Positions 5,788-56,009 of a DNA stretch of 58,769 bases are shown piece by piece; positions within the stretch are counted from its first letter, which is position 1, and each line of letters begins with the position of its first letter. A program made the position numbers and the translations under genes. Origin of the DNA: an uncultured virus (IMG/VR IMGVR_UViG_3300027749_003369) (lineage: Duplodnaviria > Heunggongvirae > Uroviricota > Caudoviricetes); the IMG/VR virus record IMGVR_UViG_3300027749_003369. One strand, written 5' to 3'. The notes beneath the pieces are model-generated. The model was not told the DNA's origin. It did no database searches and saw only the letters and a list, made by a program, of their open reading frames with translations.

Positions 5788-6610
5788 TGTATTTCTAATA
5801 GGTAATGGTGAAAGTAGAAAAGGTTTTGATCTTAACAAGTTAAAACCTTATGGTAAAGTATATGGTTGTAATGCAATCTATAGAGATTTTGTACCAGATG
5901 TATTAGTATCAGTAGATCATGGTATTATGCACGAGATATATCATAGTGGTTATTGTTATGATAATGAAACATGGTTTAGAGATTGGACTAAATGTCCTGA
6001 TTTTATGTATGAAGATTTGGTTTATGCAGGCCTATCAAAAATTGATATAGATGAATTAAACAAATGGCACGTTAAAACAGAAAATAAAAGAATTGATGAA
6101 AAAGAATTTGTTATGCACGGTGCCAATTTATCTGGCTTAGTAAAAATTTTACATAAAGACAAAAGAATAGAAGAAAAGAATATTAATTCAAATCAACTAG
6201 CTGTTAGTTGGGTAAAAGATAATGATAAGGCACATAATATAAACGAAATTATGCCTAATAATATAGATATTGGTTGGGCCGCTGGTCCTACTTCAGGCTA
6301 TATTGCAACTAAACAAGATAAACCTAAAAATGTTTATCTAATAGGACATGATTTAATAAGTGATAATTCATTTGTTAATAACATATACAAGAATACTAAA
6401 CATTATGTTATATCTGAACATTCAGCAACACCAGCAGAAAATTGGATATTACAATGGAAGATATTGTTTGAAGAAAACCCTAACATTAATTTCTATAAAG
6501 TAAATGAAAGTATTAATAATAAAGCAACGAATAAACCATTATATGTTTGGAAATCAATAAATAACTTAACATATATAGATTATAAAACACTTGACAATAT
6601 TTTAAAATAA
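5777..6610 (+). CDS. conserved phage protein, possible sialyltransferase/Maf-like transferase fold
   Basis: VFLIGNGESR...YGCNAIYRD..PDVLVSVD and VYLIGHD motifs; function not certain. Confidence 0.55.
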   Translation: MSSNVFLIGNGESRKGFDLNKLKPYGKVYGCNAIYRDFVPDVLVSVDHGIMHEIYHSGYCYDNETWFRDWTKCPDFMYEDLVYAGLSKIDIDELNKWHVKTENKRIDEKEFVMHGANLSGLVKILHKDKRIEEKNINSNQLAVSWVKDNDKAHNINEIMPNNIDIGWAAGPTSGYIATKQDKPKNVYLIGHDLISDNSFVNNIYKNTKHYVISEHSATPAENWILQWKILFEENPNINFYKVNESINNKATNKPLYVWKSINNLTYIDYKTLDNILK

Positions 6611-39683: not shown

Positions 39684-41102
39684 ATGGCATATACAATAAT
39701 TAATACTACAGATACACTAGAACAAATGCGAGTTAAGCTAAACAACTTGACTACAAATGATTTTGGCAATCCTGCTTTATTGGCGCCAGCTGGTATTGCA
39801 TCAACTTCTATTGTTGGAGCTGTTGTTGAATTAGCAGCAATTGCTTATTCAGCTGCAGGTTGGACGATTAAAGATTCTGTAAATACTACACAAGGTATTG
39901 GTTCTGGAGAAACATTAACCGTATTAGGTACTACAAATCAAATTAATGCTGTTGTAAGTGCAACGGATACTTTAACTTTAAGTTTACCTACAAATGTAGT
40001 TATATCAGGTTATTTTCAAGGCAGTAACTTTTCAACAAATTCAGGAAACATAACAGCAAATGGAACACTACACACTTTAGGTGATATAGAAATTTCTAAT
40101 GCAACAATTAGATCAATTGCAACTAGTTTGGTCACTATTAATGATTCTTTGACAGTATCGGGAACTACTCTTACAGCAAGCAATTATGTATCTTCAGGAA
40201 ACATAACTATCAATACAGATAAATTTGTAGTTACAGGTTCAAATGGTAATACTTCTATTAAAGGAACTTTAGGTGTAACTGGATTAACTACAAGTTCTGG
40301 ATTATATCTTTCTTCTGGTGCTATTGATTTTGAAGGTGCGACCAGTAATGCTTTTAAAACAACTTTGACGGTTGTTGATCCAACAGCAAATAGAACTCTT
40401 ACATTACCAAACGTAACAGGTACTATTGTTACTACAGGCGATGTTGGAACGGTTACAGGCACTATGATTGCTGATAGTACAATTATAAATGCTGATATTG
40501 CCGATAATACGATTAGAGGTGCAAAATTAAATGTATCTTCTGATAATGTAACATTTGGAACAGTTACAGCTTCTACATTTACTGGAACGGCATCTATTGC
40601 ATCCACTATTTCTTTGACCGCTGATAATAGTTCAAACACGACAAATTATTTAACTTTTTCTTCTACTGCTACAGGAAACCAAAGTTTAAAAACAGATACG
40701 GATTTAAATTATAATCCTTCTACTAATGTTTTAAATACCACGGCTACTGCAGCAAGATATGCCGATTTAGCCGAGATTTATGAAACGGATGAAGAATATG
40801 AAGTTGGTACTGTTATAATGATTGGTGGAGAAAAAGAAGTTACAAAATCTTTTGTTGGTTGTAGAGCAATTGGTGTTATATCAGAAAGACCTGCTTTTTT
40901 GATGAACGCAGAAGGAAAAGGTCAACCAGTTGCATTAAAAGGTCGTGTTAAAGTAAAAGTTTCAGGTCCTGTTAAAAAAGGAGATGAATTGGTTGCTGGT
41001 AATGACGGTTATGCTGCTACTATTAGTGAAGAATTTACAAAAGTATTTGCGATAGCATTAGAAGATAATGACAAAGGCTTAATCGAGGCAATTATACTAT
41101 AA
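39684..41102 (+). CDS. tail fibre with C-terminal intramolecular chaperone (peptidase G2/IMC-like)
   Basis: Thr/Ser/Gly-rich beta repeats; ARYADLAEIY, PAFLMN, VALKGRVKVKV.GPVKKGD. Confidence 0.82.
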   Translation: MAYTIINTTDTLEQMRVKLNNLTTNDFGNPALLAPAGIASTSIVGAVVELAAIAYSAAGWTIKDSVNTTQGIGSGETLTVLGTTNQINAVVSATDTLTLSLPTNVVISGYFQGSNFSTNSGNITANGTLHTLGDIEISNATIRSIATSLVTINDSLTVSGTTLTASNYVSSGNITINTDKFVVTGSNGNTSIKGTLGVTGLTTSSGLYLSSGAIDFEGATSNAFKTTLTVVDPTANRTLTLPNVTGTIVTTGDVGTVTGTMIADSTIINADIADNTIRGAKLNVSSDNVTFGTVTASTFTGTASIASTISLTADNSSNTTNYLTFSSTATGNQSLKTDTDLNYNPSTNVLNTTATAARYADLAEIYETDEEYEVGTVIMIGGEKEVTKSFVGCRAIGVISERPAFLMNAEGKGQPVALKGRVKVKVSGPVKKGDELVAGNDGYAATISEEFTKVFAIALEDNDKGLIEAIIL

Positions 41103-41126: not shown

Positions 41127-41576
41127 ATGATTGATGCTTTAACTGATGAAATTATGTCTTTTTCAAGATACGAAAACAATCAAATAATTTATATAGATAA
41201 AGAAGGTAAAGACTATAAAGTTAAAGAAGAAATAACTTATGGTACTTGGATCAAAACTTACAAAGATATTTCTCATATAAAAGTTGAAGGTTTAGAAGAT
41301 AAATCATTTCATTTAAAAATATTAAAAGATTTTAAATTAAATCATAAAGTAAATAGTGTTCATTTGTTTTACAATCAATATGGTGGATTTTCTTTTCCTG
41401 AACATGCAGATGACACAAACGTTCTTTTATATGTTGTAAAAGGTTCTAAAAAAGTATATGTAGATAATCATCCAATTATGTTAAAAGAGGAACAAATGAT
41501 TTTTATACCAAAAGGTGTAAAACATAAAGTTGATAGTTCCGAAAACACTTGGGCATTAAGTATAGGATTTAATTAA
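41127..41576 (+). CDS. JmjC/cupin-type oxygenase
   Basis: SFPEHAD...GSKK...FIPKGVKHKV (HxD..H). Confidence 0.8.
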   Translation: MIDALTDEIMSFSRYENNQIIYIDKEGKDYKVKEEITYGTWIKTYKDISHIKVEGLEDKSFHLKILKDFKLNHKVNSVHLFYNQYGGFSFPEHADDTNVLLYVVKGSKKVYVDNHPIMLKEEQMIFIPKGVKHKVDSSENTWALSIGFN

Positions 41577-42613
41577 TGAATTGGATGTTTTATTTAAAGA
41601 CGACTGAAACTTGTCAACTAAATTGCAAACACTGTTTTACTAGTGGTATAAATGGTAAAAAGATTTACTTTGATCATTTCAAAACAATAGATTTTATAAA
41701 AAGATTTAGACAATATTTTAATAAAGATACAGATTCAATTCATTTAGATTTTCATGGGGGTGAACCTTTTTTGGCACCAGTATCTCATATGAATAAAGTA
41801 TATGAAGAATGTAAAGATTTGTGGCCTAATATGTCATGGGGCATAACTTCAAATCTTGTTTTAAAATTAAAAGAAGAGCACTACCAATTTATAAAAGGTC
41901 CATTAAACAATAGAATAGGAACTAGTTGGGATCCTAAAATACGTTTTGAAAATGATACTCAATACAATTTGTGGGAAAAAAACGTAAAAGATTTATTAAA
42001 TAAAGGTGCCACAATTAAATTGTTTATTAGTGTAACTAAAGATACTATTGCTATGGAACCTATTGAATTATTAAAATGGATTAAAGAATTGGGTGTACAA
42101 GAAATATCATTTGAACGATTAACGGGTAATGGTAACGCAAAATTACATCCTGAGATATTTCCCAACAATATAGAACAAGATAAGTGGTTTCTAAAAATGC
42201 ACCATCAATCCAAAGAGTTTAATTGTAGGAGTTGGTTTGATAATGATACTTTAGAAATTATATACAGTAAATTTGAAAAAGGATTTTTAAAAGGAGGTAC
42301 GTTTTGCCGAGATTGCGAACAAAAAATATTCACAATAAATGCCGATGGAACAATATCAGGGTGCCCCAATTCTGCACCAGAGTTCTCTTATGGTACAATA
42401 AATGATGATATACAAACCATTATAAATAGTCCAGTTAGAATAGAAAACATTGCTTGTGAAACGGCAAGAAATCCAATATGTTTTTCTTGTGAAGTTTTTG
42501 AGTTTTGTGGAGGTGATTGCCACCAACTTGCTTGGCAAGATGATATATGTGGTGCACCTAAAAGTCTAATGAAGGAACTAAAAGGCAATATAAAATATGA
42601 CAACATTAACTAA
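41576..42613 (+). CDS. radical SAM/SPASM protein
   Basis: CQLNCKHC, FHGGEP, C-terminal CFSCEVFEFCGGDC. Confidence 0.93.
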   Translation: MNWMFYLKTTETCQLNCKHCFTSGINGKKIYFDHFKTIDFIKRFRQYFNKDTDSIHLDFHGGEPFLAPVSHMNKVYEECKDLWPNMSWGITSNLVLKLKEEHYQFIKGPLNNRIGTSWDPKIRFENDTQYNLWEKNVKDLLNKGATIKLFISVTKDTIAMEPIELLKWIKELGVQEISFERLTGNGNAKLHPEIFPNNIEQDKWFLKMHHQSKEFNCRSWFDNDTLEIIYSKFEKGFLKGGTFCRDCEQKIFTINADGTISGCPNSAPEFSYGTINDDIQTIINSPVRIENIACETARNPICFSCEVFEFCGGDCHQLAWQDDICGAPKSLMKELKGNIKYDNIN

Positions 42614-43169
42614 TCCAATAACACCACAAAATATAGTGGATAGATTTAAAGATTTTGTAACTGATACGGCAAATTCGACTATTATTTGGGGAACAAATAA
42701 TAAACCTTTTTCTCAAATGCCTGATGCCACGTTTGCAGGTACAACTGATGGAACTACGATAACAGCTACAGGTTCTTCTATAGGTTCTACAGGAAACACC
42801 ATTACAGCTTCTAATATTGTAAATGCTTTACTTACAGAAACAGCTCTTTATACTAACATAAGAAATTTAAGAGCAGTATTAAATGTGGTTCTTAGTTATT
42901 ATGGTGGTAATTATCCTGGTGGTGGTGGAGTAATTTATGATCAAACTGCAAAAGCATATTTAAATACTGATTATAGACAAACGTTAAATACTGTTGCCTC
43001 TACAAATGTGGAATCAGAGAAAATAATATCAGCAACAAATTTAGAAACATTTTTTACAAATTTACAAACGGAGTATAGTACACAATCGGTTAATACTGCA
43101 ACAATACAGGTGGACGTATGTCATGCGAGTTGTCATGGAAATTGCCACAGCAACAGAGGAAGAAGATAA
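42597..43169 (+). CDS. Thr-rich virion-like protein with C-terminal (CHxx)3 tail; candidate modification substrate
   Basis: Ends VDVCHASCHGNCHSNRGRR; no Cys or His elsewhere in the protein. Confidence 0.75.
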   Translation: MTTLTNPITPQNIVDRFKDFVTDTANSTIIWGTNNKPFSQMPDATFAGTTDGTTITATGSSIGSTGNTITASNIVNALLTETALYTNIRNLRAVLNVVLSYYGGNYPGGGGVIYDQTAKAYLNTDYRQTLNTVASTNVESEKIISATNLETFFTNLQTEYSTQSVNTATIQVDVCHASCHGNCHSNRGRR

Positions 43170-43861
43170 TGCAAACAATTGAAACAACAGCACCAATATC
43201 GATAGAAAATTTAAAAAAGTATTTTACAAATAAAGATACTTTTTATGTTATAGATTACACTAAGAGTGAAATGAAAGGTTCTAAATTGTTAACATATCTA
43301 AGTAATTTAGATTTACCTGTAGATATAAAAGAACCGGATTTAGAATTAATAAAAGATTATTTTAATAGTATTTCATTAGTAAATATTAATTCATTAGAAA
43401 ATATTACAATTAATGTTTTGTTACAGTACAAAGGTTTAGTTAAAGAAGATAATTATAAAAATTTCATTCAAGAAAATAAAGAAATAATTTCTAAATGGTC
43501 TGATAAGTTGGATAGTTTAACAATATTCAATGCGTATATGGTAAATTCTGATTTACTAAAAAATTATGCACAAACTTTTCCTAAAGATGAAACAAAAGAT
43601 TTAACAGGTGTAAATTTTTTAAGTTTATTAAAACATGAAAGATTTTATTCATTTTATAATGTATTAAATAAAAATTTAAAATTTTATACTCATTATTTTA
43701 CTGATTATATGTTTAGAGGTAGAAATTTGTTTAGTTTTTGGGGCAATCCAAACAATCCAATGTTTTTATTAACACTAGCAATATCTCAAGGTAAAAATAA
43801 AGATTATATAACAGCAAAACAACAAGATAAGGAAATAATAAAAAATGTTGCATCTATTTAG
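43169..43861 (+). CDS. hypothetical protein of the radical SAM cluster
   Basis: MQTIETTAPI..., TAATG-coupled to the previous gene (ORF track 43118..43861). Confidence 0.75.
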   Translation: MQTIETTAPISIENLKKYFTNKDTFYVIDYTKSEMKGSKLLTYLSNLDLPVDIKEPDLELIKDYFNSISLVNINSLENITINVLLQYKGLVKEDNYKNFIQENKEIISKWSDKLDSLTIFNAYMVNSDLLKNYAQTFPKDETKDLTGVNFLSLLKHERFYSFYNVLNKNLKFYTHYFTDYMFRGRNLFSFWGNPNNPMFLLTLAISQGKNKDYITAKQQDKEIIKNVASI

Positions 43862-45002
43862 AAAAATTTATTTAGAACACGATATTAATATAGATTTGGA
43901 TAAAGATAGAATAGTTGTTTCTGAACAATGTGGCGTGCCTAATTGGAATGTATTAGATACAATTGGACTTGGACAACTTATATTTTATGGTAAAAATTTG
44001 GATAATTTAAATACTCCGGTTTCTTTTCTTGAATTGCTTAATATACTCAATGAAAGAACAAAAGAAAATAATAAACCTATTTACATATATGCTGATAAAA
44101 ATAATTATTATAAAATATTAAGTCTTTGGTATAAAATTATATTACCTAATGCCACGGTTAATGATGTTATAAGTTTTGTAAAACTATTTTTTGATTATAA
44201 AAATTTTTGGAAAATATCAAGATTTTATAATTTCAAAAAAATTTGGTCTACATCGCCTGATTGGTTATTTGATAGAAATAAATTAGAAACTGAATATAAT
44301 TCTTTAATAATTAATCGTGATGATTATGAAACTTTTATTAATGAAAATGTTGGAAAATTTAATATAGAATTATTATTAGCTTCTTATTTATATAATGGTT
44401 CGAGAAAAGAAGAATTGAAAGCAATTATGATTCCTCTGTTAAGAGAAGAACTTTCAAAATCTTTATATGGAATAAGAGAACATTTTACTTACTGCTTACT
44501 TAATAAAAAATTTTTAGAAAAACTGGGAATTGTACATACTATTGATATTAATAATATTTTAGATATTCTTGAATACGATAATCCTATAATTAAAACATTT
44601 TATCAAAATAATTCTGTTTGGAAATTAAATTTTTTATCTCACGCTGCTTATGACATTATGAATAATTGGGGGTCTGATTCTATGATTTCTTTCGAAAATA
44701 TTACAGATGAAGATATTTTTAATATTAAACAATTTTTAATAAATATTGGAATTTCAGAAACAGATTCGGCTGGTATGGAATGGCGTTATTTGTTAGATCT
44801 TATTCCTCTTGTTAAGTCTAATACAATAACTGATGAACAATTAGATCAATTAATAAATCATCAAGAATCACAAGAAAGCTTAGTTACCACTGGTACTTTT
44901 TATAGCATAAGTTTTCCTACAGTTAATACTTACTTTGTGCAACATATTTTTAATCAATTTAATGAAGATAATACAGAAATTTTGGCTCCATATGTTATAT
45001 AA
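43845..45002 (+). CDS. hypothetical protein of the radical SAM cluster
   Basis: 385-aa ORF, coupled; no motif recognised. Confidence 0.75.
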   Translation: MLHLFRKIYLEHDINIDLDKDRIVVSEQCGVPNWNVLDTIGLGQLIFYGKNLDNLNTPVSFLELLNILNERTKENNKPIYIYADKNNYYKILSLWYKIILPNATVNDVISFVKLFFDYKNFWKISRFYNFKKIWSTSPDWLFDRNKLETEYNSLIINRDDYETFINENVGKFNIELLLASYLYNGSRKEELKAIMIPLLREELSKSLYGIREHFTYCLLNKKFLEKLGIVHTIDINNILDILEYDNPIIKTFYQNNSVWKLNFLSHAAYDIMNNWGSDSMISFENITDEDIFNIKQFLINIGISETDSAGMEWRYLLDLIPLVKSNTITDEQLDQLINHQESQESLVTTGTFYSISFPTVNTYFVQHIFNQFNEDNTEILAPYVI

Positions 45003-45004
45003 AG

Positions 45005-46039
45005 GTGAAAATGCAAGAAGATATATCATTCTACAAATTAATAGATAATAAAGTTATAGACTGGTCTGAAATTGTTTTATGTTTATTTGAACATTGCAAT
45101 TTATCATGTGCTTTTTGCCCACAAGATCATTCAAGTATATTGGGTGCCTCAGAAGAAGAAATCTTAAATAAAGTTCCAACAATAACCCGTTACATTGAAC
45201 GAAACGATAGATCAAAACATTTCATAATAAACACTATGGGTGGTGAACTGTTACAAGATACATGGACAGATAAAGGCTTCTTAGATATATATTCTAAATT
45301 TGTAAAACAAGTTAGAGAAAAAGTTTCTTCTGATAAAACTGTTGTATTTAATTTTGTTACCAATCTTGTATTTGATAAAACAGATTTAATCGTAGATTTT
45401 ATTAAAAAAAATAATATCATATTATCAGTTTCTTATGACATTGTAGGTAGATTTAATACACCTGCATTAGAAACTTTTAAAAAAAATATAGATATTCTTA
45501 AATCACATATTAAAATGATAAGTTGTGTTTTGACAAAACAGAACATTGAAAAAATAGTTGCTGGTGATGAATACTTTGATTATCTATATAATAATTTTGA
45601 AATACATTTTGATTCATTATTACCAAGTGTAACTAGAAAAACAAATGTCTTTATGATGCCTGCTGAATCAGAAACATTTAAATTCTATAAACTATGTGTT
45701 GACAAATATCCTAAAATGTTAAACATAGAACCATTCTTAAATGGCAAAACAAATAATAGGATGGGTTGCACTAAAGGCAACAGTTTAACAGTAATGCCTG
45801 ATGGTAGTATACCAAAAGGCTGTTCTGGTGCAGTGTTATTACAAGATTCAAATACAAAAGATTTGAGTGGTACTAAAATTATTGAAAACTTTATGAAAAA
45901 ATATAATTGTTTTGAATGTGAGTTTTTTCAAAGATGTCCTTTTACCTGCTTTATAAAACAAGATTTTAAATTTATTGAACATGATATGAACGAATGTGTG
46001 TTTAAGGAAACATTTAGGTATGCTGATTCAAAAAAATAA
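45005..46039 (+). CDS. radical SAM protein with C-terminal Cys cluster
   Basis: CNLSCAFC, MGGE, CFECEFFQRCPFTC. Confidence 0.9.
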   Translation: MKMQEDISFYKLIDNKVIDWSEIVLCLFEHCNLSCAFCPQDHSSILGASEEEILNKVPTITRYIERNDRSKHFIINTMGGELLQDTWTDKGFLDIYSKFVKQVREKVSSDKTVVFNFVTNLVFDKTDLIVDFIKKNNIILSVSYDIVGRFNTPALETFKKNIDILKSHIKMISCVLTKQNIEKIVAGDEYFDYLYNNFEIHFDSLLPSVTRKTNVFMMPAESETFKFYKLCVDKYPKMLNIEPFLNGKTNNRMGCTKGNSLTVMPDGSIPKGCSGAVLLQDSNTKDLSGTKIIENFMKKYNCFECEFFQRCPFTCFIKQDFKFIEHDMNECVFKETFRYADSKK

Positions 46040-47720
46040 AATAGCATTTATAAATCCACCACATACTGATTGGAGTTTAGCAAATAATTTAACTTATTTG
46101 CTGATACAAAGTCATTATAGAAGATTTGGTAAATATTATGATAAATTTGAATGGTTAGAAGCTCCTTATAAATTTAATAAGTACAAAGATATAAAAGATA
46201 TATACAATGAAATTCCTAATGCAGACATTTATTTAATTAGTAGTTATGTATGGAATTATGATATATGTGATTTGTTTGCTCAACATGTTAAAAAAATAAA
46301 CAAAAATGCTTTATGTATATTAGGCGGTCCACATATAGGTACAAATGAACCTGAGTTTTTAAAATCAAGAAAATTTTATGATTTTATATGTCAACCTACA
46401 AAACCTGGTGAAGTTTTTATAGAAGATTTTCTAAATTCTTATATAGACAATAACGGCAAAGTTAATAAAGAAGATATCAGTTGGGAAATGAATAGTACAA
46501 AACAAACTAAATGTGGCCTGCCTGATTATTCAATATATGAAGAACATTTTGATTATGTAAAAAAAATATGCAATTATTCAAAAGAACATAAAATGGAAGC
46601 ATTTATTGTATTAGAAACTACAAGAGGTTGTCCATACAAATGTGTGTATTGTGAATGGGGTGGCGGATTAGATACTAAAATTATAAAGAAAAAAGTAGAT
46701 ATTGCTAAGAGAGATATTTCTGCTATGAAGCGTGCTGGTTATACAAGTGCATTTTTAACAGATGCAAATTTTGGAGCTTTTGAAGAAAGAGATTTAGAAA
46801 TATTTAAATTCGCATGGCAACAAGGAGTGCATTTAACAGATATATCTACAATGAAATCTAAAGATTTAAATAGAAGAAAAAAGTTAGTTGATTGTTGGTT
46901 TGAAATAGTAGGACCTAGAGTTGAACCTAAAAATTCTAAACAAAGTAAAAATTTTGAATATTGGAACTTAAATGAGGTTGATAATTATATTTCTATTGTT
47001 CCTACTGTTTCAATTCAAAGTATATCTGATGAAGCAATGAAAGTTGCTAAAAGAGTTGATTTATCATCTAAAGATAAAATAGAACTGAGTAAACATATAG
47101 AAAAACAATGTAGAGAAAAAGGTTATCCTGTACCATCACTAGAATTAATATTAGGAATGCCTGGTTCAACATTAAAAGATTTTTATGATGAAATGGAAAT
47201 TATATGGAATTTTAAAGCACTTAGTAATAACAGACACGATTATATATTATTGCCAGATAGTTATATAAGCAAAAAAGAATATTTGGAACAATATAAAATT
47301 CAACCTGTAAAAGTATATACTGATTTGGTAGATGATTCTGGTGTAGACAATGTACATAGTTTATATAAACAAAAACAAAATTATTTCTATACAATACAAA
47401 GTTGTTATAGTTTTACCAAAGAAGAAATGTACGAAATGTTTTTTATGAATCAAGCTTGTAATAAATTATTAGAATTGATATATCCAATGTTTGAAGAAAA
47501 ATTAACACCTGGTAATTTTTGTAAAGAATGTTTTGCTATAATAAAAGAATTACCTGAGTATAGTAAAATAAATAATTATATTATAGATTTATACGATATT
47601 AATACTCCTCCAAAAAGTATTAAAAAAATAAATGGAAGATTTAGAACTGAAATTATTGATGAAATGGTTTTAAATAATAAACATATTATAATAAGTGAGA
47701 TGTTTAAAAAATGGATTTAA
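46020..47720 (+). CDS. cobalamin-binding-domain radical SAM enzyme (class B-like)
   Basis: N-terminal SSYVWN...ILGGPH; ETTRGCPYKCVYCEWG; DANFG; ELILGMPG. Confidence 0.88.
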   Translation: MLIQKNKIAFINPPHTDWSLANNLTYLLIQSHYRRFGKYYDKFEWLEAPYKFNKYKDIKDIYNEIPNADIYLISSYVWNYDICDLFAQHVKKINKNALCILGGPHIGTNEPEFLKSRKFYDFICQPTKPGEVFIEDFLNSYIDNNGKVNKEDISWEMNSTKQTKCGLPDYSIYEEHFDYVKKICNYSKEHKMEAFIVLETTRGCPYKCVYCEWGGGLDTKIIKKKVDIAKRDISAMKRAGYTSAFLTDANFGAFEERDLEIFKFAWQQGVHLTDISTMKSKDLNRRKKLVDCWFEIVGPRVEPKNSKQSKNFEYWNLNEVDNYISIVPTVSIQSISDEAMKVAKRVDLSSKDKIELSKHIEKQCREKGYPVPSLELILGMPGSTLKDFYDEMEIIWNFKALSNNRHDYILLPDSYISKKEYLEQYKIQPVKVYTDLVDDSGVDNVHSLYKQKQNYFYTIQSCYSFTKEEMYEMFFMNQACNKLLELIYPMFEEKLTPGNFCKECFAIIKELPEYSKINNYIIDLYDINTPPKSIKKINGRFRTEIIDEMVLNNKHIIISEMFKKWI

Positions 47721-48802
47721 TAATTAAACCTACTGAGTTATGTAACTTTAAATGTACTTTTTGTTCTAGTACAAAGATATCCGAACATAGAAAAGATGAA
47801 TTATCACATGAACAAATAATTACATTTTTAAAAAGATTTCCTCAAACGAGAACAATTATAGTTAATGGTGGGGATCCTTTAATGATGGAACCAGAATATT
47901 ATTGGAAAATTATTAAATGGTTAGATAAAAATAATTATAAAACAACACTTGCATTAACAACCAATTTGTGGCCATTTTACAAAAAACCAGAGAAATGGAA
48001 AGACTTATTTAATAATGAAAGAGTGGGTGTAACTACTTCGTTTCAATATGGAGGTGGCCGCCTTAAAGGAGATTATTCAGAATTTACAGAAGAAGATTTT
48101 TGGAAATGTTCAGATACAATGTTAGAGCACTGTGGTTATAGGCCAGATTTTATATCTGTTATAGTACCTGAAAATGAAAAAGTTGCAATTAAAAATGTAG
48201 AACTTGCAAAACGTATGAGTGAAGATGTTGTACCTGATGGTACATTACACAACTTTACACGTTATAGTAAAACCGGCGTAGAATGTAAATTAAACTATGC
48301 AATGGCCAGCGGTGAACAAGGTAAACCTTATTTACTGAGTAAAATATATCAAATCTATGTAGAGATATGGAAACGTGGTCTTGCGCCTTGGGAATTTAAT
48401 ACAAAACAAATGATGCAACGATTAACTGGTGGTAGAACATCATGTCCTCAAAATCGTAAATGTGATAGTGGTATTCGTGCATTAAATCCTAGTGGTGATT
48501 ATTATTCTTGTGGTTCGTTTGGTGATGATAAAGATAAATCAATAGATTTTAATAAAGAAATGAAGGGTGAGTTTTTTACGCCATTACAAGATGATGTTAA
48601 TCTTATTAGTATGAAGAAGGCCTGTTTTACTTGTCCTATGTTTGAGATATGTAATGGTTGTAGAAAAACAATTAAAGATTTAAAACAACATAATATGGTA
48701 GAAGAACATTGTAAATTAATGAAATCTATTGCACCAGATATACTTAAATCTAACAAACTAAATATAGAAGTAACACCTTATATAAATGAAAGTATACTAT
48801 GA
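47711..48802 (+). CDS. radical SAM/SPASM protein
   Basis: KPTELCNFKCTFC, NGGDP, GDYYSC, CFTCPMFEICNGC. Confidence 0.93.
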   Translation: MDLIIKPTELCNFKCTFCSSTKISEHRKDELSHEQIITFLKRFPQTRTIIVNGGDPLMMEPEYYWKIIKWLDKNNYKTTLALTTNLWPFYKKPEKWKDLFNNERVGVTTSFQYGGGRLKGDYSEFTEEDFWKCSDTMLEHCGYRPDFISVIVPENEKVAIKNVELAKRMSEDVVPDGTLHNFTRYSKTGVECKLNYAMASGEQGKPYLLSKIYQIYVEIWKRGLAPWEFNTKQMMQRLTGGRTSCPQNRKCDSGIRALNPSGDYYSCGSFGDDKDKSIDFNKEMKGEFFTPLQDDVNLISMKKACFTCPMFEICNGCRKTIKDLKQHNMVEEHCKLMKSIAPDILKSNKLNIEVTPYINESIL

Positions 48803-49548
48803 GAGATTTATTAATAACTTCTTCGTATCAAATACAAGTAGAATATAATAACAAATATATTCAAGAGCAAAAATATTTAATAGATCAAAAAAAATTAATA
48901 TCTGAAAATGAAGTATTAAATTATAAACACAAAGATGGTAGAATATATGCTTCTGATTCTGACAAAGGAGGTGATCTTTATTTAGCAGTAAGTGTTAGTC
49001 CTTACCATCCTAAGTTTGAAGAACAGGTTGAAGATGGTATTAAAGATATGGTTTTTGCGTTTTTAAATAAAAATTATATGACTGTTAGTAGTTGCGAAGG
49101 ACATTATAAAAATTTTAATTCTTCTAATGTTGTATTGGCGTTTCCTTATTCTGAAGATAGAGACATTGTTGTTGAAAAATTAAAAAATATTCCATTTGTA
49201 ACTTTTGAATTTTTGGACAGAATAGCTAATGTAGAAAGTTATAAAGATAAAGATGGTATTATGAAAATTAAAAGACTAAAAATAGAAAATCATTCTTATG
49301 AAGCTGAAGCTGAAAGCATTAATAAATTGTTTTTTAAAAAATATAAAAGATATTATTTTTTAGAAATTAGATTTTTTAAATACAAGTATGAACATATAGA
49401 GTGGCCTTATAGTTATCATTTTTTTAATTTTTTAATACCATTAAATGCTTTGTTTGTTAATTATTTAAGAAAAAAATATGAAAAACAAATTAAAAATATA
49501 GTTATAAATATAATTAATAGTAAAGAGTTTTTAGCTTATGACAAATAA
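48799..49548 (+). CDS. hypothetical protein with TVSSCEGH motif
   Basis: ORF coupled to neighbours; motif reminiscent of the TYW3-like TxSSCxG. Confidence 0.65.
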   Translation: MRDLLITSSYQIQVEYNNKYIQEQKYLIDQKKLISENEVLNYKHKDGRIYASDSDKGGDLYLAVSVSPYHPKFEEQVEDGIKDMVFAFLNKNYMTVSSCEGHYKNFNSSNVVLAFPYSEDRDIVVEKLKNIPFVTFEFLDRIANVESYKDKDGIMKIKRLKIENHSYEAEAESINKLFFKKYKRYYFLEIRFFKYKYEHIEWPYSYHFFNFLIPLNALFVNYLRKKYEKQIKNIVINIINSKEFLAYDK

Positions 49549-50122
49549 TATGAATGAAGGTATGAATTATTGTTGGCCAACGACTATATTGAAAGACACC
49601 ATTGTTGATAAAAAAATATTAGATGGTGTTGTAAATCATATTTTCTCTAATTATGATTCAGAACAATTTAAAGAATCTTTAGATATGAAAGACGGAAATT
49701 TATTTAATGATAAATATTTTATTACATTTAAAGAAAAAATTGTTATACCTTCTTTTAAAAAATATTTAAAATTACAAAATCTTAATATTGAAAAAAATTT
49801 TCACACAAAAGCTTGGATAACAGGTAGCAAATCTTCTTATTCTATGCCCACACATAATCATTCCGGTTCTCATTTGAGTGCTGTATTTTATTTATTGTGT
49901 GAAGATCAAAATCAAGGAGGTGGATTAATATTACATGATCCTAGGCATAACGCAAATAGAGGATATATTTCTGAATTAAAAGATTGGTTTAAGCCAATAA
50001 AATTTTATCCCAAGTCTGGAGATATAATTATTTTTCCAAGTTTTTTATATCATAATGTAGAACCTTTTTTTGGAAAAATAAGACTTGCTATGCCTATAGA
50101 TTTATTTTTAATAGATGAATAA
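49538..50122 (+). CDS. 2OG-Fe(II) oxygenase (TIGR02466-like)
   Basis: HNHSGSHLSAVFY, DPR, GDIIIFPSFLYHNV. Confidence 0.88.
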   Translation: MTNNMNEGMNYCWPTTILKDTIVDKKILDGVVNHIFSNYDSEQFKESLDMKDGNLFNDKYFITFKEKIVIPSFKKYLKLQNLNIEKNFHTKAWITGSKSSYSMPTHNHSGSHLSAVFYLLCEDQNQGGGLILHDPRHNANRGYISELKDWFKPIKFYPKSGDIIIFPSFLYHNVEPFFGKIRLAMPIDLFLIDE

Positions 50123-50624
50123 TATTGAACAACATAAATCTAATTTTCTTACAAAAGGATTTACTGTATTTAAAGGTAACAAATATACTGATCTTGTAAA
50201 TCTTGATACTATTGAATGGAATTTTCCTGGTACAGATAACGACTATCATCCTACTGGAGATACTAAACAATTAGATAAGGCCTTAATGGCCATACATTTT
50301 AATATTTCAGATAAAATAGTGCAACCCATGTTTGGCGAACATGTTATGGGAGATCGTCAGATGTGGGAAGGCATTTATACAAAAGCAAGTGAATGGCATA
50401 ATGATATAGAAGAATGTGATTTCTTTTTTATACTATATTTTTCAGAAATGAAAAAATATAAACAAGGAGAAATACAATTTAAAACAGATAAAGAAATGTG
50501 GACATTTTATCCAAGTGTTGGTTCTTTGGTGTTAGTTAATAATGATACAAAATTTAAACACAGGGCAGGTAAAACAGATAAACAGAGAATACAAGCATCT
50601 TTTTACTTTAATTTAAACAAATGA
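50115..50624 (+). CDS. 2OG-Fe(II) oxygenase
   Basis: WHND...FKHRA...RIQASF. Confidence 0.8.
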   Translation: MNNIEQHKSNFLTKGFTVFKGNKYTDLVNLDTIEWNFPGTDNDYHPTGDTKQLDKALMAIHFNISDKIVQPMFGEHVMGDRQMWEGIYTKASEWHNDIEECDFFFILYFSEMKKYKQGEIQFKTDKEMWTFYPSVGSLVLVNNDTKFKHRAGKTDKQRIQASFYFNLNK

Positions 50625-51547
50625 AATCAATAACAGTATCAATCAATCCTAGTTATTTTTGCAACTTTAGATGCAACTTTTGTTATCTTACACCTGAACA
50701 ATTGGGAGATCAAAAAAAAATACCACTAGCAATACTTGATCAAAGACTTAAAGAAATTAGTAGAGTAAGAAAGATTGATTGGGTAGATTTATATGGTGGA
50801 GAAATAGGTGCTTTAAAGAAAGATTATTTTTATGGATTAAAAGATGTTATAAGAAAATACTATAAAGATAAAATCAATATTATAACAAATCTTTCAATGT
50901 TACATGAAGGTTTTTTTGAAGATGATTTTTATTTGGGGGTAAGTTATGATTTTGAAGCAAGAGAAAAGTCTGATTTGGTTTATAATAACATGTTTCATAG
51001 TCCTGTGCCTATTGCGGTATTAATACTTGCGAGTCAAAAGGTTTTAGAAATGGATGTAGATGATATGATACAAAAAATGAATTTATGTTCTAGTATAGAA
51101 AGTGTAGAGATTAAACCGTATTCAATAAATCAAGCCAATTCTCAACCTGTTACTCATAAAGATTTTGAATTATTTGTTAAAAAATGGATTGAAAGTCCTA
51201 TTAAAAAAAGATTTGATTTTATAAATGAAGGTAATATAATTAGGAGTTTAAAAAAAGAATATAACGCATTTTCAAACAATCATGTTTATATAACACCTAA
51301 TGGAAATTTTGCTGTGTTAGAATTTGATGAAAATGACAAAGAATACTTTTTAGAGTTAAATTCAATTAAAGAATATGTAAAATGGGCTGAACAAGAACCT
51401 ATCAACAATGTTTCAGATATATGTAGAAAGTGTAAATATTATGGCCATTGTTTAACGGAACATTATCGTTATGTAAAAGATTTAGATAATGGTTGCAATG
51501 GATATAAAGGACTATTGGATTACTATGCACAAAGAATGGAAAATTAG
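50621..51547 (+). CDS. radical SAM protein with C-terminal Cys cluster
   Basis: CNFRCNFC, LYGGE, CRKCKYYGHC. Confidence 0.9.
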   Translation: MKSITVSINPSYFCNFRCNFCYLTPEQLGDQKKIPLAILDQRLKEISRVRKIDWVDLYGGEIGALKKDYFYGLKDVIRKYYKDKINIITNLSMLHEGFFEDDFYLGVSYDFEAREKSDLVYNNMFHSPVPIAVLILASQKVLEMDVDDMIQKMNLCSSIESVEIKPYSINQANSQPVTHKDFELFVKKWIESPIKKRFDFINEGNIIRSLKKEYNAFSNNHVYITPNGNFAVLEFDENDKEYFLELNSIKEYVKWAEQEPINNVSDICRKCKYYGHCLTEHYRYVKDLDNGCNGYKGLLDYYAQRMEN

Positions 51548-51929
51548 ACAAGAATTATATCATAGAATGGTAACAGATCATGGTGATGATCTTAATAAAT
51601 TACCAGTAGAATTTTCTAATGATATAGTTGAAAATGCTGTAAGATATTTTTACAATAAAGATATGCCTTTTATATATCCTTCTAAAAGTTATGTTGTGGC
51701 TATATGTTATGCTTATTGGTTATCAAAAGATTTTGATGAAGATTTTTATGAATTATTAAATGATGGTGATTTGTTGTATCGTAATGATTCATATTTTAAG
51801 ACTTATGATGCAGATATAAATACTTATGATAGTATATTAAATAAAATTATGCCTTTAGATGAAACTAAAGGTATTGTTCCGGACATAAAAGAATATTATA
51901 AGAAAGAGTTTTTAATAGATGAATCTTAA
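51525..51929 (+). CDS. hypothetical protein of the radical SAM cluster
   Basis: MHKEWKIRQELY...IYPSKSYVVAICYA; ORF track 51489..51929. Confidence 0.72.
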   Translation: MHKEWKIRQELYHRMVTDHGDDLNKLPVEFSNDIVENAVRYFYNKDMPFIYPSKSYVVAICYAYWLSKDFDEDFYELLNDGDLLYRNDSYFKTYDADINTYDSILNKIMPLDETKGIVPDIKEYYKKEFLIDES

Positions 51930-52599
51930 TTTTGATTATCAGTTTGATGTGCATAAATTTCACGAAATAGGATTTAATGTAGGAATATTGCCTTCTGAAT
52001 TTGTACAAGAAGCAAAAAGAATAGTTAGTAATACAAAATTTAACACAGATGCGCCTGCACCTCATTCAGCAACTTGGATGCAAATACCTAAAGGTTTAAA
52101 TTTAGAAAAACATGGACTTGGTGAATTTGGATATGAAGAAAATTTAAAAGATTTATATTGTTACAATAATGCACCGCATCATCTTAAAAATTTAGCAAAC
52201 GAAATAGTATCTTTAAAATTTTTTGAGCCATTAAAAAAAAGTTTAGTAAAAGATCAACATAAAGATACATCTTGGTTGCGTTCAATAAGACCATTTACTT
52301 ATGGTTTATGGAATAATACAGAAACTTTAGCATGGCATAATGATAATTATGATAGTAGTTATATGGTTATGTTAATGTACTTTAATGATTATCCTGAATG
52401 GAAACCTGAATGGAAAGGTCAAGTTTGTTTTGGTAAAGAAAACGAAGAAGGAATTATAACAGAAATACATCAACATTTTCCTAGTGATGGAACATTTGTT
52501 TGTATTAATAATTATAATCCTTTATTTAAACATAGAGTTGAACAAAACGATTTAACTAAAAACAGATTTACTTTTAACTTTAAATTTAAAATACACTAA
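51919..52599 (+). CDS. 2OG-Fe(II) oxygenase (prolyl-hydroxylase-like), paralog A
   Basis: WHND, EWKPEWKG, FKHRV, RFTF. Confidence 0.85.
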   Translation: MNLNFDYQFDVHKFHEIGFNVGILPSEFVQEAKRIVSNTKFNTDAPAPHSATWMQIPKGLNLEKHGLGEFGYEENLKDLYCYNNAPHHLKNLANEIVSLKFFEPLKKSLVKDQHKDTSWLRSIRPFTYGLWNNTETLAWHNDNYDSSYMVMLMYFNDYPEWKPEWKGQVCFGKENEEGIITEIHQHFPSDGTFVCINNYNPLFKHRVEQNDLTKNRFTFNFKFKIH

Positions 52600-52600
52600 C

Positions 52601-53368
52601 ATGAACCTTAATTTTGATTATCAATTTGACGTATATAAATTCTTTGAAGTAGGATTTAACATTGGCATATTACCTAATGATTTGACTGAAGATGCAAAAC
52701 AAATAATAGCAGAAACTAAATTTGAAAATTTTATTGAAGAAAATCAAAAGACAATAGAAAATAAAACAAATTCAAATCTTACCGAGGCAGATATTAAAAA
52801 AGGTCCTATTGCAGCAACATGGTCTCAAATGCCATTAGATACTTTAACTAATATTATATCTCCTAATAATAAAAAAATTTATACTATAAATGATTTCCCC
52901 TATGAAGAACAATTAAGAGATTTATACTGTTACAATAATGCACCTGATAGTGTAAAAGAATTAGCAATTAAAGTTTTAGAAATGCCATTTTTTGATCCGT
53001 TAAGATTAAGTTTAGTAAAAGATGGTATGACACAGAATACTTGGTTAAGAACTATTAAATCTTTTACTTATGGTTTATGGAATGGTACAGAAGATTTACC
53101 TTGGCATAATGATTCCGATGATTGTTGTAATATGATTGTATTGATGTACTTTAATGATTATCCTGAATGGAAACCAGAATGGAATGGACAAATATGTTTT
53201 GGTAAAGAACAAGAAGATGGAAGTATTAAAGAAATACATCATCATTATCCAGTTGATGGAACATTTGTTTGTATTAATAACTATAATCCTTTAATGAGAC
53301 ATAGTACAATAGCAAACGATTATACTAAAAATAGATATACTTTTAATTTTAAATTTAAATTTGAATAG
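52601..53368 (+). CDS. 2OG-Fe(II) oxygenase, paralog B
   Basis: Same MNLNFDYQFDV start; WHND, EWKPEWNG, MRHS, RYTF. Confidence 0.85.
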   Translation: MNLNFDYQFDVYKFFEVGFNIGILPNDLTEDAKQIIAETKFENFIEENQKTIENKTNSNLTEADIKKGPIAATWSQMPLDTLTNIISPNNKKIYTINDFPYEEQLRDLYCYNNAPDSVKELAIKVLEMPFFDPLRLSLVKDGMTQNTWLRTIKSFTYGLWNGTEDLPWHNDSDDCCNMIVLMYFNDYPEWKPEWNGQICFGKEQEDGSIKEIHHHYPVDGTFVCINNYNPLMRHSTIANDYTKNRYTFNFKFKFE

Positions 53369-54108: not shown

Positions 54109-54330
54109 GTGAATGATATGACAATTAATATAAACGGTAAAGAATATGACGAAACTAAGTTTGACGACATATTAAAAAATTACATTATAGCTAGACAAGA
54201 AATACAAAATAGTAGAATTAGAATAGTTATGGAACTTGAAAAAATTGATGTTCTTACAAACTATTATAATTCTAAAATTAATGAAGAATTAAAAAAATTA
54301 GAAGAACCAAAAGAAAATAATAAAGAATAA
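54109..54330 (+). CDS. small coiled-coil hypothetical protein
   Basis: MTININGKEYD...; start 54109 or 54118. Confidence 0.7.
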   Translation: MNDMTININGKEYDETKFDDILKNYIIARQEIQNSRIRIVMELEKIDVLTNYYNSKINEELKKLEEPKENNKE

Positions 54331-54333
54331 AAA

Positions 54334-54681
54334 ATGGCAGGTATAGCAAACTTATCAATAGACGCTGGCGCTACATTTACAAGTGATGTATTGGTACAAA
54401 ATGATGATGGTACAGCTTTTAACTTAGCGGGTTATACAGCTCAAGGCAAAATGTCAAAGGGGTATTCTGTTACTTACGATAGAGTATATTTTGATATTAC
54501 TGTCTATGAAGCTGACGGAATTGTAACTATAAAATTGGATCCAGCTACAACTGCTTTGTTAGAAGATGGACGTTGGGTATATGATGTTGAAATAACAAAC
54601 ACAGCTGACAGCACTGTAACTCGTGTGGTTGAAGGTATTATTACTGTTTATCCTGGCGTAGTTTCTACTTACACTGTATAA
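54334..54681 (+). CDS. virion protein, BppU-N-like fibre attachment domain
   Basis: ANLSIDAGATF...FNLAGYTA...GRWVYDVEI...TRVVEGIITVYPGV. Confidence 0.7.
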   Translation: MAGIANLSIDAGATFTSDVLVQNDDGTAFNLAGYTAQGKMSKGYSVTYDRVYFDITVYEADGIVTIKLDPATTALLEDGRWVYDVEITNTADSTVTRVVEGIITVYPGVVSTYTV

Positions 54682-56009
54682 TTAAAAAATTTGTTTGTAG
54701 GTAATTTTATTTCGGTATTGTTTTTTGAAAAATGATAATCTCCATCTGGGCCATTATCACAAAAAGGTCCTGAAATTAATCTAAAACCTAAATTCTCAAC
54801 ATATTTAATTACTTCATCTCTTAGAGGTGCGCCTTTATTATATTCTACTATTTGTAATTCTAATATTAAATCTTTACAATGTTTTAAAGCTTCTTTAGAT
54901 CCTTTTAGTACATCTAATTCAGCACCTTGTACATCTATTTTTATCAAGTCCGGCATAGGTAGATTTCTTGAACTTATGATACCATCTAAAGTTTTAGTTT
55001 TATATAATTTTTTATTACTTTCATTATACAATTTATTAGATTCAGAACTGATTTGTTCGTTTTCTTTATAATAACTATTTCCACCAGGATGATAAGTGTT
55101 TTTATAAAAATTAACTTCTTTATCATTTACATCACTTAATACACCTATATGATATTGTAAATTATTTTCTTTATATAAAAATTCACACTCAGACATAGCT
55201 TCAAAAACAACATACTCAGCATTTGGCCATATTGTTTTAGCTTCACTTGTCCAATGTAAAACACAAGCACCTATATCGTAAATTACTTTAGGTGATATGT
55301 TTAAGCTTTTTAAATAATCTACATGTATTTGAGGTAGTAATCTTTTAGTTGATAATTCTTTTAATCTATCAGGTATATTAAGTTCATCTTTTTTTAAAGT
55401 TGGTGTATTAGTTGTACTTTCTACTTTAAAAATTGTATTACCTATATGTTCACAATGTACTGTTGTATCGGCAAATATTCCAAAACCTTTTGATTTAACT
55501 TTTCTACAAAAATCAACATCTTCCGATATTGTGTTTTTATGATCTATTGCTGAATGATAAACAAAATGAGGATAAGATATTGATCTAAAAACATCTCCTT
55601 TAATTAATACACAGCCCATACCACATGCTACTAATTCCACTAATGGAATATCTTTTATTTTTTCAAATGGTATATTTGAACATCCGCCTTTTTCATTAGG
55701 TTCATAAACTTCTAATATATGTTCGTTTTGTTTTCTTTGTATATACAGACCTGACACCATATCTTTATTATGACTTAAAAGTTTTTTAAGTGTATCTGGT
55801 GAAAAAGAAATATCACTATCTACCGAAAACAAATAATCATAATGAGTTGACCAATGTGCTATTAAATTTCTTATTTGATCTATTTGATAACCAAAGAAAA
55901 ATTGTAATTCTGTAGTATAACCTTCAGGAACTTCAAGATCGTAGATGGCCTTCATTGTTTTTGTTTCAACGTATTTGTTTGTTGGTATAGCAATTAATAT
56001 CTTTTTCAT
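54669..56009 (-). CDS. GT-A glycosyltransferase fused to FkbM-family methyltransferase
   Basis: YLFSVDSD, CGMGCVLI, SEDVDFC; then YDIGA, DLIKIDVQGAELDVLKG. Confidence 0.88.
   Translation of the reverse strand: MKKILIAIPTNKYVETKTMKAIYDLEVPEGYTTELQFFFGYQIDQIRNLIAHWSTHYDYLFSVDSDISFSPDTLKKLLSHNKDMVSGLYIQRKQNEHILEVYEPNEKGGCSNIPFEKIKDIPLVELVACGMGCVLIKGDVFRSISYPHFVYHSAIDHKNTISEDVDFCRKVKSKGFGIFADTTVHCEHIGNTIFKVESTTNTPTLKKDELNIPDRLKELSTKRLLPQIHVDYLKSLNISPKVIYDIGACVLHWTSEAKTIWPNAEYVVFEAMSECEFLYKENNLQYHIGVLSDVNDKEVNFYKNTYHPGGNSYYKENEQISSESNKLYNESNKKLYKTKTLDGIISSRNLPMPDLIKIDVQGAELDVLKGSKEALKHCKDLILELQIVEYNKGAPLRDEVIKYVENLGFRLISGPFCDNGPDGDYHFSKNNTEIKLPTNKFFNYTV

Follow-up and report, generated by a model that had tools for sequence, protein, structure and literature searches.

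A conserved cassette of radical SAM enzymes and oxygenases beside phage tail-fibre genes, with a Cys-His-tailed virion protein as its candidate substrate

We analyzed a 58,769-nucleotide stretch of DNA from an uncultured virus of the Caudoviricetes (IMG/VR record IMGVR_UViG_3300027749_003369; this whole stretch is called the window below), focusing on a cassette of enzyme genes that adjoins a tail-fibre gene. The genome region is that of a low-GC (25–32%) T4-like myophage. Upstream of the cassette lie genes for baseplate hub, wedge, tube and gp5-like proteins, a 2031-residue DUF4815 structural protein and a fibre-like protein (39684–41102, + strand; tail-fibre family phrog_19602, E-value of 1.4e-9). 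The cassette itself spans positions 41127–53368 and comprises 15 open reading frames (ORFs), all on the + strand, with 12 of the 14 junctions overlapping and gaps of 1–2 nt at the other two. A first-pass annotation had described 15 co-oriented, mostly overlapping genes with five radical S-adenosylmethionine (SAM) enzymes and five oxygenases, and scans against Pfam, PHROGs and NCBIfam confirmed this inventory: four radical SAM proteins with C-terminal Cys clusters, one B12-type radical SAM protein, one JmjC-like cupin, four 2-oxoglutarate (2OG)-like oxygenases and five unknowns, which match no Pfam or NCBIfam family and carry no functional name. The same scans bore out the earlier remark that no protease or exporter is recognizable among the 15 genes, and none was found among the conserved neighbours.

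The third ORF (42597–43169) encodes a 190-residue protein, here called CH, whose start overlaps the end of the preceding radical SAM gene, rA, by 17 nt. This ORF had been singled out as the candidate substrate of the cluster, and its product carries a repeat tail at the extreme C-terminus. The last 16 codons (43119–43166, residues 175–190) encode Cys-His-Ala-Ser-Cys-His-Gly-Asn-Cys-His-Ser-Asn-Arg-Gly-Arg-Arg-stop, corresponding to a family consensus of (Cys-His-x-Ser)x3-Arg-x-Arg-Arg. In an alignment of 44 CH sequences, where the mean column identity is 33%, the sole invariant columns are C175, H176, C179, H180, C183, H184, R187, R189 and R190, with S178 and S186 nearly invariant. A profile search of 1.84 billion representatives, clustered at 50% identity, placed 848 in the family at an E-value of ≤ 0.001 and 611 at ≤ 1e-10. 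Among the best 150 of the 848, the canonical tail ends 138 proteins, 137 with three repeats and one with four; eight of the remaining 12 have three Cys-His units but a non-canonical ending, and four lack three such units. Serine occupies the fourth position of repeats 1, 2 and 3 in 127, 110 and 127 of the 138 tails, respectively.

We considered a DNA-level cause for the conservation of the tail and ruled it out. In 173 distinct DNA instances of the tail, each conserved residue is written with a mixture of synonymous codons (TGT and TGC about equally for Cys, CAT and CAC for His, both codon families for Ser, AGR and CGN for Arg), thus selection acts on the protein. Apparent tandem stop codons after the tail (72/173) were also discarded, since the next codon is TGA in 66 of them, the stops are mostly TAA, and TAATGA contains the overlapping ATG that starts the following gene, u247.

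An AlphaFold2 (AF2) model of CH shows a confident globular α/β domain (mean predicted local distance difference test score, pLDDT, of 87.1; predicted template modelling score, pTM, of 0.80), with low confidence in the last 15 residues. Foldseek found no solved relative of this model in the PDB at an E-value of ≤ 0.001, and a wide VIA-align search reached a best Z of only 3.8. Six BFVD models matched at an E-value of ≤ 0.001, all of them uncharacterized or unnamed viral proteins. No known scaffold family was matched in Pfam, NCBIfam or the fold searches, no NCBIfam precursor model was matched, and the only name encountered in the family was "hypothetical protein". CH proteins are folded proteins of 125–326 residues, and their N-terminus is conserved in its own right in the 44-sequence alignment. 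In one 453-residue relative (P0029, from a cluster of 12 members), a Gly-rich region matching the tail-fibre-assembly family phrog_863 (1.7e-6) is naturally fused to a complete CH domain and tail. A pattern search for the tail in IMG/VR returned at least 121 stretches; among the matches listed, many carry two tandem CH genes with their tails ~383 bp apart. The enzyme set is unchanged between three- and four-repeat tails and between loci with one or two CH genes. On three contigs, which belong to one bin, two tandem short CH proteins (125–140 residues) lie directly 3' of a giant fibre of 1945–2859 residues, with the enzymes ~5 kb beyond (L088:6062-6879, L093:6016-6776, L103:1846-2681).

Four radical SAM genes, rA (41576–42613), rB (45005–46039), rC (47711–48802) and rD (50621–51547), surround and follow CH. 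All four products match phrog_1802, with E-values from 2.5e-68 (rA) through 2.7e-34 (rB) to 8.4e-32 (rD), and all have a CxxxCxxC motif and conserved C-terminal cysteines; rC, the most conserved of the four, also matches Radical_SAM with 37.6 bits. We aligned each family across loci from phages and from metagenome-assembled genomes (MAGs). In rA (35 sequences), C13, C17 and C20 are invariant together with C247, C263, C302, C305, C311, C315 and C325, and in rB (31 sequences) the invariant set is C31, C35 and C38 with C255, C273, C302, C305, C311, C315 and C331; both display the full seven-Cys SPASM pattern. A SPASM variant with eight C-terminal cysteines accompanies the invariant C11, C15 and C18 of rC. 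The C-terminus of rD is twitch-like, with only four cysteines (C268, C271, C277 and C292, invariant along with C14, C18 and C21). The SPASM family PF13186 was above its cut-off for rA alone among the radical SAM proteins (23.8 bits).

Profile comparisons against the PDB matched rA to ChlB (9gm3, 6e-9), 8vpo, CteB (5wgg) and the anaerobic sulfatase-maturating enzyme anSME (4k37), and rC to anSME over its full length (3e-6). The best partial NCBIfam matches were PapB, anSME, CXXX-repeat maturase, DynA, HxsB/C and cyclophane synthases. Matches to MoaA (the case for rC), QueE and viperin are confined to the N-terminal SAM-binding part, whereas the full-length matches are SPASM peptide and protein maturases. 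Judged by these matches, the cassette radical SAM enzymes lie nearest to peptide- and protein-modifying SPASM enzymes and away from nucleoside and cofactor enzymes. The first-pass annotation had noted that SPASM/twitch radical SAM enzymes are mostly peptide and protein maturases, and had named a grouping with nucleoside or cofactor pathways as an outcome that would speak against its proposal; no such grouping was seen.

The first gene of the cassette (41127–41576) encodes the JmjC-like cupin, a predicted Fe(II)/2OG oxygenase that scores above the cut-offs of both Cupin_2 (34.9 vs 27.2 bits) and JmjC_2 (24.1 vs 22 bits). Its residues H93, D95, K108 and H133, which are invariant in 57 sequences, are those that JmjC-type hydroxylases use for iron and 2-oxoglutarate, and the enzyme looks active. 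Among the members of the JmjC_2 family are hydroxylases of Arg and His in ribosomal proteins, and His and Arg are invariant side chains of the CH tail.

The core also holds two unknowns, u247 (43169–43861; phrog_20767, 2e-59) and u146 (51489–51929; phrog_20737, 1.3e-44). The u247 ORF opens at 43118; however, the TAATG stop/start overlap with CH indicates that the window protein likely starts at 43169 and is translationally coupled to CH. The Atlas version of u247 begins at residue 18 of the longer ORF, and u247 lies immediately 3' of CH in 71/87 cases. Its AF2 model (pLDDT of 88.5) had no Foldseek match and a best VIA Z of 5.0 over 55 residues. Against PDB sequences, the u247 profile gave no match and the u146 profile a single chance-level match, and the ESM Atlas held no usable match for either. 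A further unknown, u385 (43845–45002), is frequent in the long loci (39/44) and has no Pfam, PHROGs or NCBIfam match; its invariant residues are Y9, D13, D84, E175 and N361.

We next examined how far this arrangement recurs. Megablast of the cluster against isolate phages gave no match, and tblastn of rA found only 15 isolate records, all jumbo phages of Ralstonia, Burkholderia, Agrobacterium, Sinorhizobium and Pseudomonas. Atu_ph07 and RSL2 each encode one orthologue of cupin, rA, CH, u247, rB, rC, rD and u146, in the same order and adjoining virion structural genes, with the exception of u146 in Atu_ph07, which is found ~5 kb further along, on the opposite strand. The rC orthologues of these two phages are 56–63% identical to that of the window. 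Their CH homologues, Atu_ph07 gp170 (296 residues; also among the six BFVD matches) and RSL2 ORF068 (186 residues), occupy the same position and have the same tail pattern, with bodies that barely align. Pattern matching in IMG/VR picked out 318 stretches, of which 304 code for relatives of rC, and we kept 80 loci. Their gene order runs from DUF4815-like, 72-residue virion protein and fibre genes through cupin, rA, CH, u247, u385, rB and either the B12 enzyme or an unknown (c15) to rC, rD, u146, u73, a fibre-assembly-like gene and further fibre genes; 2OG genes and a few unknowns are variable. The nearest record to the window is a 31-kb fragment of the same cassette. The frequency of rC relatives and the recurring order show that the cassette is not a chance assembly.

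We scored the 44 loci of at least 18 kb with profile hidden Markov models (HMMs). The genes rA, rB, u247 and u146 were found in 44/44, rC and rD in 43/44 and the cupin in 40/44, with all seven together in 40/44. Thus CH, cupin, rA, rB, rC, rD, u247 and u146 constitute an eight-gene core that is one conserved functional unit; it leaves out the B12 enzyme and most 2OG oxygenases, which are accessory. The core recurs in marine T4-like phages, in jumbo phages and in the MAGs described below. This upholds the first-pass view of the genes as one pathway. An earlier paper remarked on 12 radical SAM genes in a T4-like environmental genome (PMC5332604), and the papers on phages FLC6, S13 and RP12/RP31 list cupin and radical SAM genes, and for FLC6 and S13 also 2OG genes, without function.

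The composition of the core bears on one alternative, in which the enzymes would form a nucleoside, DNA-base or glycan modification pathway and the fibre neighbourhood would be incidental. Radical SAM enzymes of phages are involved in the hypermodification of thymidine, according to the accessible parts of two reports (PMC5889632, PMC8989533), a dihydrofolate reductase gene sits inside the RSL2 cassette, and the window has genes for glycosyltransferases and an FkbM methyltransferase just downstream of the cassette. However, the full-length matches of the radical SAM proteins are SPASM maturases of peptides and proteins, the conserved core has no nucleotide or sugar-nucleotide enzyme, the glycosyltransferase genes occur in only 10–11/82 loci, and the invariant CH tail would be left unexplained. 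We regard this alternative as very improbable.

The tail also led outside the viral databases. As an independent test, we searched prokaryote assemblies with a degenerate DNA pattern of the 16-residue tail only and obtained 22 stretches with the same enzymes around it. Some still show the gene order of the viruses together with fibre genes, and are thus evidently contigs of phages that were binned into MAGs. Many of the rest sit on long contigs (1.29 Mb, 382 kb, 299 kb and 223 kb) from MAGs whose records carry the label Bdellovibrionota; there, the tail gene is flanked by the same enzymes, with the order shuffled and both strands used. Where the tail had at least 9 kb on both sides, tblastn found rA, u247 and rB at 10/10 loci, rC, rD and u146 at 9/10 and the cupin at 3/10, the last being too diverged for that threshold. 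A CH match in 10/301 sampled Bdellovibrionota genomes indicates that the cassette is sporadic in that phylum. A prophage origin was considered for three MAG copies (L090, L095 and L097) and set aside: their flanks encode serine dehydratase, an Mrp/NUBPL ATPase, an ABC transporter and 3-hydroxyacyl-CoA dehydrogenase, and the Pfam-matched ORFs, among many unmatched ones, are housekeeping, oxygenase, fibre and a few other non-phage genes, with no phage head or tail genes besides the fibres. At one locus only, in a Halobacteriovoraceae MAG, a clostripain-family protease and a transglutaminase-elicitor-like protein adjoin the cassette (L095:2138-4952, − strand).

Fibre genes accompany the cassette in both settings. 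In the family of the fibre upstream of the cassette, 12 of 27 members match the Peptidase_G2 (PF11962) self-cleaving intramolecular chaperone (IMC) domain, with a best E-value of 8.6e-6; the window member falls below the cut-off (21.4 vs 25 bits). The only match of the fibre protein or its profile in the PDB was a weak one to a tailspike chaperone domain (E-value of 0.097). Over 79 residues the window fibre is 49% identical to the C-terminus of Atu_ph07 gp176. A blastp search located a fibre protein with a chaperone end at 66/102 loci. In the MAG loci, proteins ending in Peptidase_S74 lie within a few kb of the cassette, one with a pilin-like N-terminus, and the accessible part of a study of Bdellovibrio describes S74-ended MAT fibres as its prey-recognition fibres (PMC10769870). 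The cassette thus adjoins genes for fibres that end in self-cleaving chaperone domains, as phage tailspikes and MAT fibres do. The accessible part of the MAT fibre paper mentions neither a radical SAM enzyme nor a Cys-His-tailed partner, and our literature search found no paper that brings together Bdellovibrio, radical SAM and fibre.

Published proteomics of Atu_ph07 virions include the CH homologue among the proteins of the particle. In the electrospray ionization tandem mass spectrometry data (Supplementary Table S5 of PMC6102473), Gp170 (31.89 kDa) is listed with eight unique peptides and 35% coverage in bands 1–9, peaking in band 1. The same table lists Gp176 (66.07 kDa, 14 peptides, peak in band 4) and Gp177, and gp165–169, gp171 and gp172 are absent from it (PMC6102473). 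Masses computed from RefSeq match those of the table exactly (31.89, 66.07 and 21.66 kDa), which shows that the two numberings coincide and that gp170 is the CH homologue and gp176 the fibre homologue. This agrees with the first-pass proposal that a virion protein is the target. Band 1 is the peak band of 75–140 kDa proteins (PMC6102473), and the peak of the 32-kDa gp170 in it suggests a larger species that is stable to sodium dodecyl sulfate (SDS) and heat; a trimer of the 31.9-kDa protein (~96 kDa) would fit. In the same table, gp176 peaks in band 4 with 50–55 kDa proteins and the 66.3-kDa portal in band 3 (PMC6102473); the position of gp176 would fit loss of its C-terminal chaperone domain.

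We propose that the 15 genes form a single maturation cassette for CH, in which the enzymes would cross-link and hydroxylate the tail of a fibre-associated virion protein, and we put the probability of this proposal at roughly 60%. The radical SAM enzymes rA, rB, rC and rD and the JmjC-type Fe/2OG cupin would act on the exposed, flexible CH tail inside the infected cell, probably assisted by u247 and u146, which have no known fold. The chemistry is probably iterative, proceeding repeat by repeat, and candidate steps are thioether or other Cys cross-links, cyclophane-type links from His to Ser, and the addition of hydroxyl groups to His or Arg, for which the cupin would be responsible. Lineage-specific extras would decorate the tail further, in the window a B12 methylase (methylation) and four 2OG oxygenases (further hydroxylation). 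The finished CH would then be built into the tail-fibre apparatus of the virion, beside a fibre whose C-terminal chaperone domain cleaves itself off. The cross-linking, methylation and hydroxylation suggested in the first-pass annotation are thus retained as predictions from sequence for CH, and the cassette may, as further suggested there, build a receptor ligand or a metal site on the particle.

Several points weigh against this proposal. No mass spectrum of any CH protein shows a modification, and for gp170 the published table reports coverage but no individual peptides. None of the four radical SAM enzymes reaches a curated NCBIfam cut-off, which makes the chemistry a guess. No RiPP recognition element (RRE) or PqqD-like domain was matched by Pfam or NCBIfam in the 15 genes (RiPP denoting a peptide that is made by the ribosome and modified after translation), and the u247 model offers no clear fold match. 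The HMM counts are partly circular, since 80 of the 102 loci were chosen via rC and these loci also supplied the HMMs. Evidence for a place in the virion was obtained with another phage, through a homologue that matches the window CH over only 71 residues at 38% identity, and its band-1 peak may be smearing, as gp170 occurs in nine bands and many other proteins in the table are also multi-band. Finally, the three Cys and three His of the tail could simply bind metal unmodified.

This last point can be extended to an alternative in which the Cys-His tail is a metal or iron–sulphur (Fe-S) site and CH a metal-bearing structural protein or cluster donor, with the enzymes acting on the fibre, another virion protein or a component of the host envelope. 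Six invariant residues suited as metal ligands sit in a flexible tail, the four Fe-S enzymes require clusters, and the Mrp/NUBPL-type gene that flanks the cassette in L090 encodes an Fe-S carrier. T4 provides examples of trimeric phage fibres with metal sites on their axis, and a fibre gene is nearly always nearby, a chaperone-ended one in the 66/102 loci given above. Such a site would not explain the near-invariant Ser at repeat position 4 or the invariant Arg-x-Arg-Arg end, however, and an enzyme gene placed beside that of its substrate, as rA is in overlapping CH, is typical of maturase–precursor pairs. Moreover, no known scaffold family matches CH, and because the CH homologue is found in virions and the enzymes are not, CH is no co-factor that stays with the enzymes. 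On balance we consider this explanation unlikely, although it is the one to which we give most weight after the maturation of CH.

A different fate for the tail would be as the core of a small product, released in the manner of pyrroloquinoline quinone (PQQ), mycofactocin or methanobactin, that serves as cofactor, metallophore or toxin in infection or predation, with the CH body a mere carrier. Some peptide-derived cofactors have their conserved core at the very C-terminus, and the pathway here holds many oxidative steps. Clostripain cuts after Arg, and a clostripain-like protease lies near the cassette in the single MAG locus mentioned above. Against release stand the lack of a conserved protease or exporter in the cassette, the 170-residue CH body, which is a conserved and confidently folded domain with its own conserved N-terminus, the detection of the CH homologue as a virion protein at 35% coverage, and the position of the cassette among fibre genes in phages and in Bdellovibrionota-labelled MAGs. 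We consider a released product improbable. The same observations qualify the label "RiPP-like" of the first-pass annotation: a precursor with a conserved candidate core, the invariant 16-residue tail, does lie beside a putative maturase gene, but the substrate is a folded protein of 125–326 residues and no leader or follower peptidase or exporter was found, so that the label fits loosely.

We compared the cassette, read as a maturation system for CH, with known systems. The nearest described system is the bacterial HXS antiphage defence, in which, according to the accessible part of its description, the radical SAM enzymes HxsB and HxsC together with HxsD mature a His-x-Ser repeat protein, with modification at an S-H-R-S-S motif (PMC13128918). 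As far as that part goes, the two share the action of two radical SAM enzymes and a small partner on a folded repeat protein, the CH repeats contain His-x-Ser, and the tail is likewise basic. The differences, on the same basis, are that our cassette has four radical SAM enzymes and a cupin, invariant cysteines, repeats at the extreme C-terminus and no peptidoglycan-binding domain, and that it is carried by phages or predator-labelled MAGs with a CH homologue that is a virion protein, whereas HXS produces a bacterial defence effector. In addition, rA scores 35.1 bits against an HxsB (TIGR03978) cut-off of 370 and rC 32.5 bits against an HxsC (TIGR03977) cut-off of 267.9.

The best database neighbours are the SPASM maturases (PapB, CteB, anSME, TIGR04115, ChlB, YhhB, FxsB and DynA), which share the CxxxCxxC motif, the seven-Cys SPASM pattern and a gene adjoining a Cys-rich repeat substrate. 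The scores are far under the cut-offs, however (PapB 50 vs 340; TIGR04115 39.5 vs 350), and the cassette differs in having no detected RRE, leader peptidase or exporter, a 125–326-residue substrate and four distinct enzymes conserved together. The anSME model gave 40.9 and 38.7 bits against a cut-off of 349, and the CH tail lacks the Pro/Ala-x-Arg spacing of the anSME substrate motif, Cys/Ser-x-Pro/Ala-x-Arg. Triceptide synthases act on an aromatic-x-x motif, which the CH tail contains as His-x-Ser, but none of their cut-offs was reached (YhhB 32.7 vs 445, FxsB 26.7 vs 370, XyeB 19.8 vs 450 and AmcB 22.6 vs 425 bits). In the QhpD/QhpC pair of quinohaemoprotein amine dehydrogenase, a SPASM radical SAM enzyme puts several Cys thioether cross-links into a subunit that is kept in a larger assembly. 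A weak match of rB to TIGR03906 (1e-4) recalls QhpD, although its 21 bits compare with a cut-off of 453, the two systems differ wholly in substrate and context, and the cassette shows no quinone cofactor logic. Neither the tail nor the cassette as a whole was found described in the openly accessible literature, which is in line with the earlier view of an undescribed system; subscription-only papers, such as the original RSL2/RSF1 paper, were outside the scope of this search.

The remaining genes of the cassette are accessory. The putative B12-binding, class B-like radical SAM protein (45996–47720) matches the KedN5 subfamily at 1.8e-23 in its N-terminal part only (82.6 bits vs a cut-off of 700), and scores below the cut-offs of PF02310 (20.0 vs 32.1 bits) and PF04055 (29.0 vs 29.5 bits). 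It occurs in 29/82 loci, with c15 in its place elsewhere. The unknown u249 (48799–49548), without a Pfam, PHROGs or NCBIfam match, occurs in 20/82 loci. Of the four 2OG genes, which vary in presence and, for the first, in copy number, one is clear by Pfam (Oxy_5, 49538–50122; PF13759, 50.5 bits, 2.9e-13; phrog_81, 2.5e-23) and two are sub-threshold, at 50115–50624 (PF13640, 21.6 bits, with an HxD...H pattern visible in the sequence) and 51919–52599 (PF13661, 22.3 bits). The fourth (52601–53368) has no Pfam match and is 54.5% identical to its paralogue at 51919–52599. A u73 and tail-fibre-assembly-like region (54109–54681, + strand; phrog_3304/phrog_1084) closes the cassette in most relatives.

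Other genes were seen in or near the cassette. An additional, fifth radical SAM-like gene that lacks SPASM lies within the cassette at L055:8932-9999 and nine other loci (cluster c25). At three loci (L022, L023 and L025), tryptophan-halogenase-like genes (PF04820, 1.1e-72) lie downstream of the cassette, and in two of these also upstream. Just past the window cassette, on the opposite strand, are a glycosyltransferase fused to an FkbM methyltransferase (54669–56009) and a 675-residue glycosyltransferase-like protein (56006–58033). A 277-residue protein encoded at 5777–6610 (+ strand) matches phrog_30607 (1.4e-60), as does an unknown, c24, which 16 related loci carry between rD and u146; in this phage, a gene associated with the cassette may therefore sit ~35 kb from it.

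Peptide antibiotics and cofactors are the known products of radical SAM/SPASM enzymes, whereas in this cassette a constant set of four, together with an oxygenase, seems to be devoted to a virion structural protein, and the same kit lies beside fibre genes in MAGs labelled as predatory bacteria (Bdellovibrionota). As a tentative idea, phages and predatory bacteria may share an unrecognized finishing of their attack apparatus, in which radical SAM enzymes and a JmjC oxygenase make the CH tail polycyclic, so that it may bind metal or, through cross-links between subunits, lock a trimer covalently. This would make the cassette a possible phage-side counterpart of HXS defence, which, from the accessible part of its description, uses its radical SAM-matured His-x-Ser repeats at the DNA-entry step (PMC13128918). 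If true, a polycyclic tail would mean that a virus particle bears, for the first time, a natural-product-type structure installed by enzymes. The proposed maturation of CH would offer enzymology four uncharacterized radical SAM families with a defined 16-residue substrate, and would explain the abundance of radical SAM genes in some T4-like and jumbo phages, which has been noted without explanation (PMC5332604, PMC8066314, PMC11898562). It would also represent a new class of post-translational chemistry in virion assembly and host recognition.

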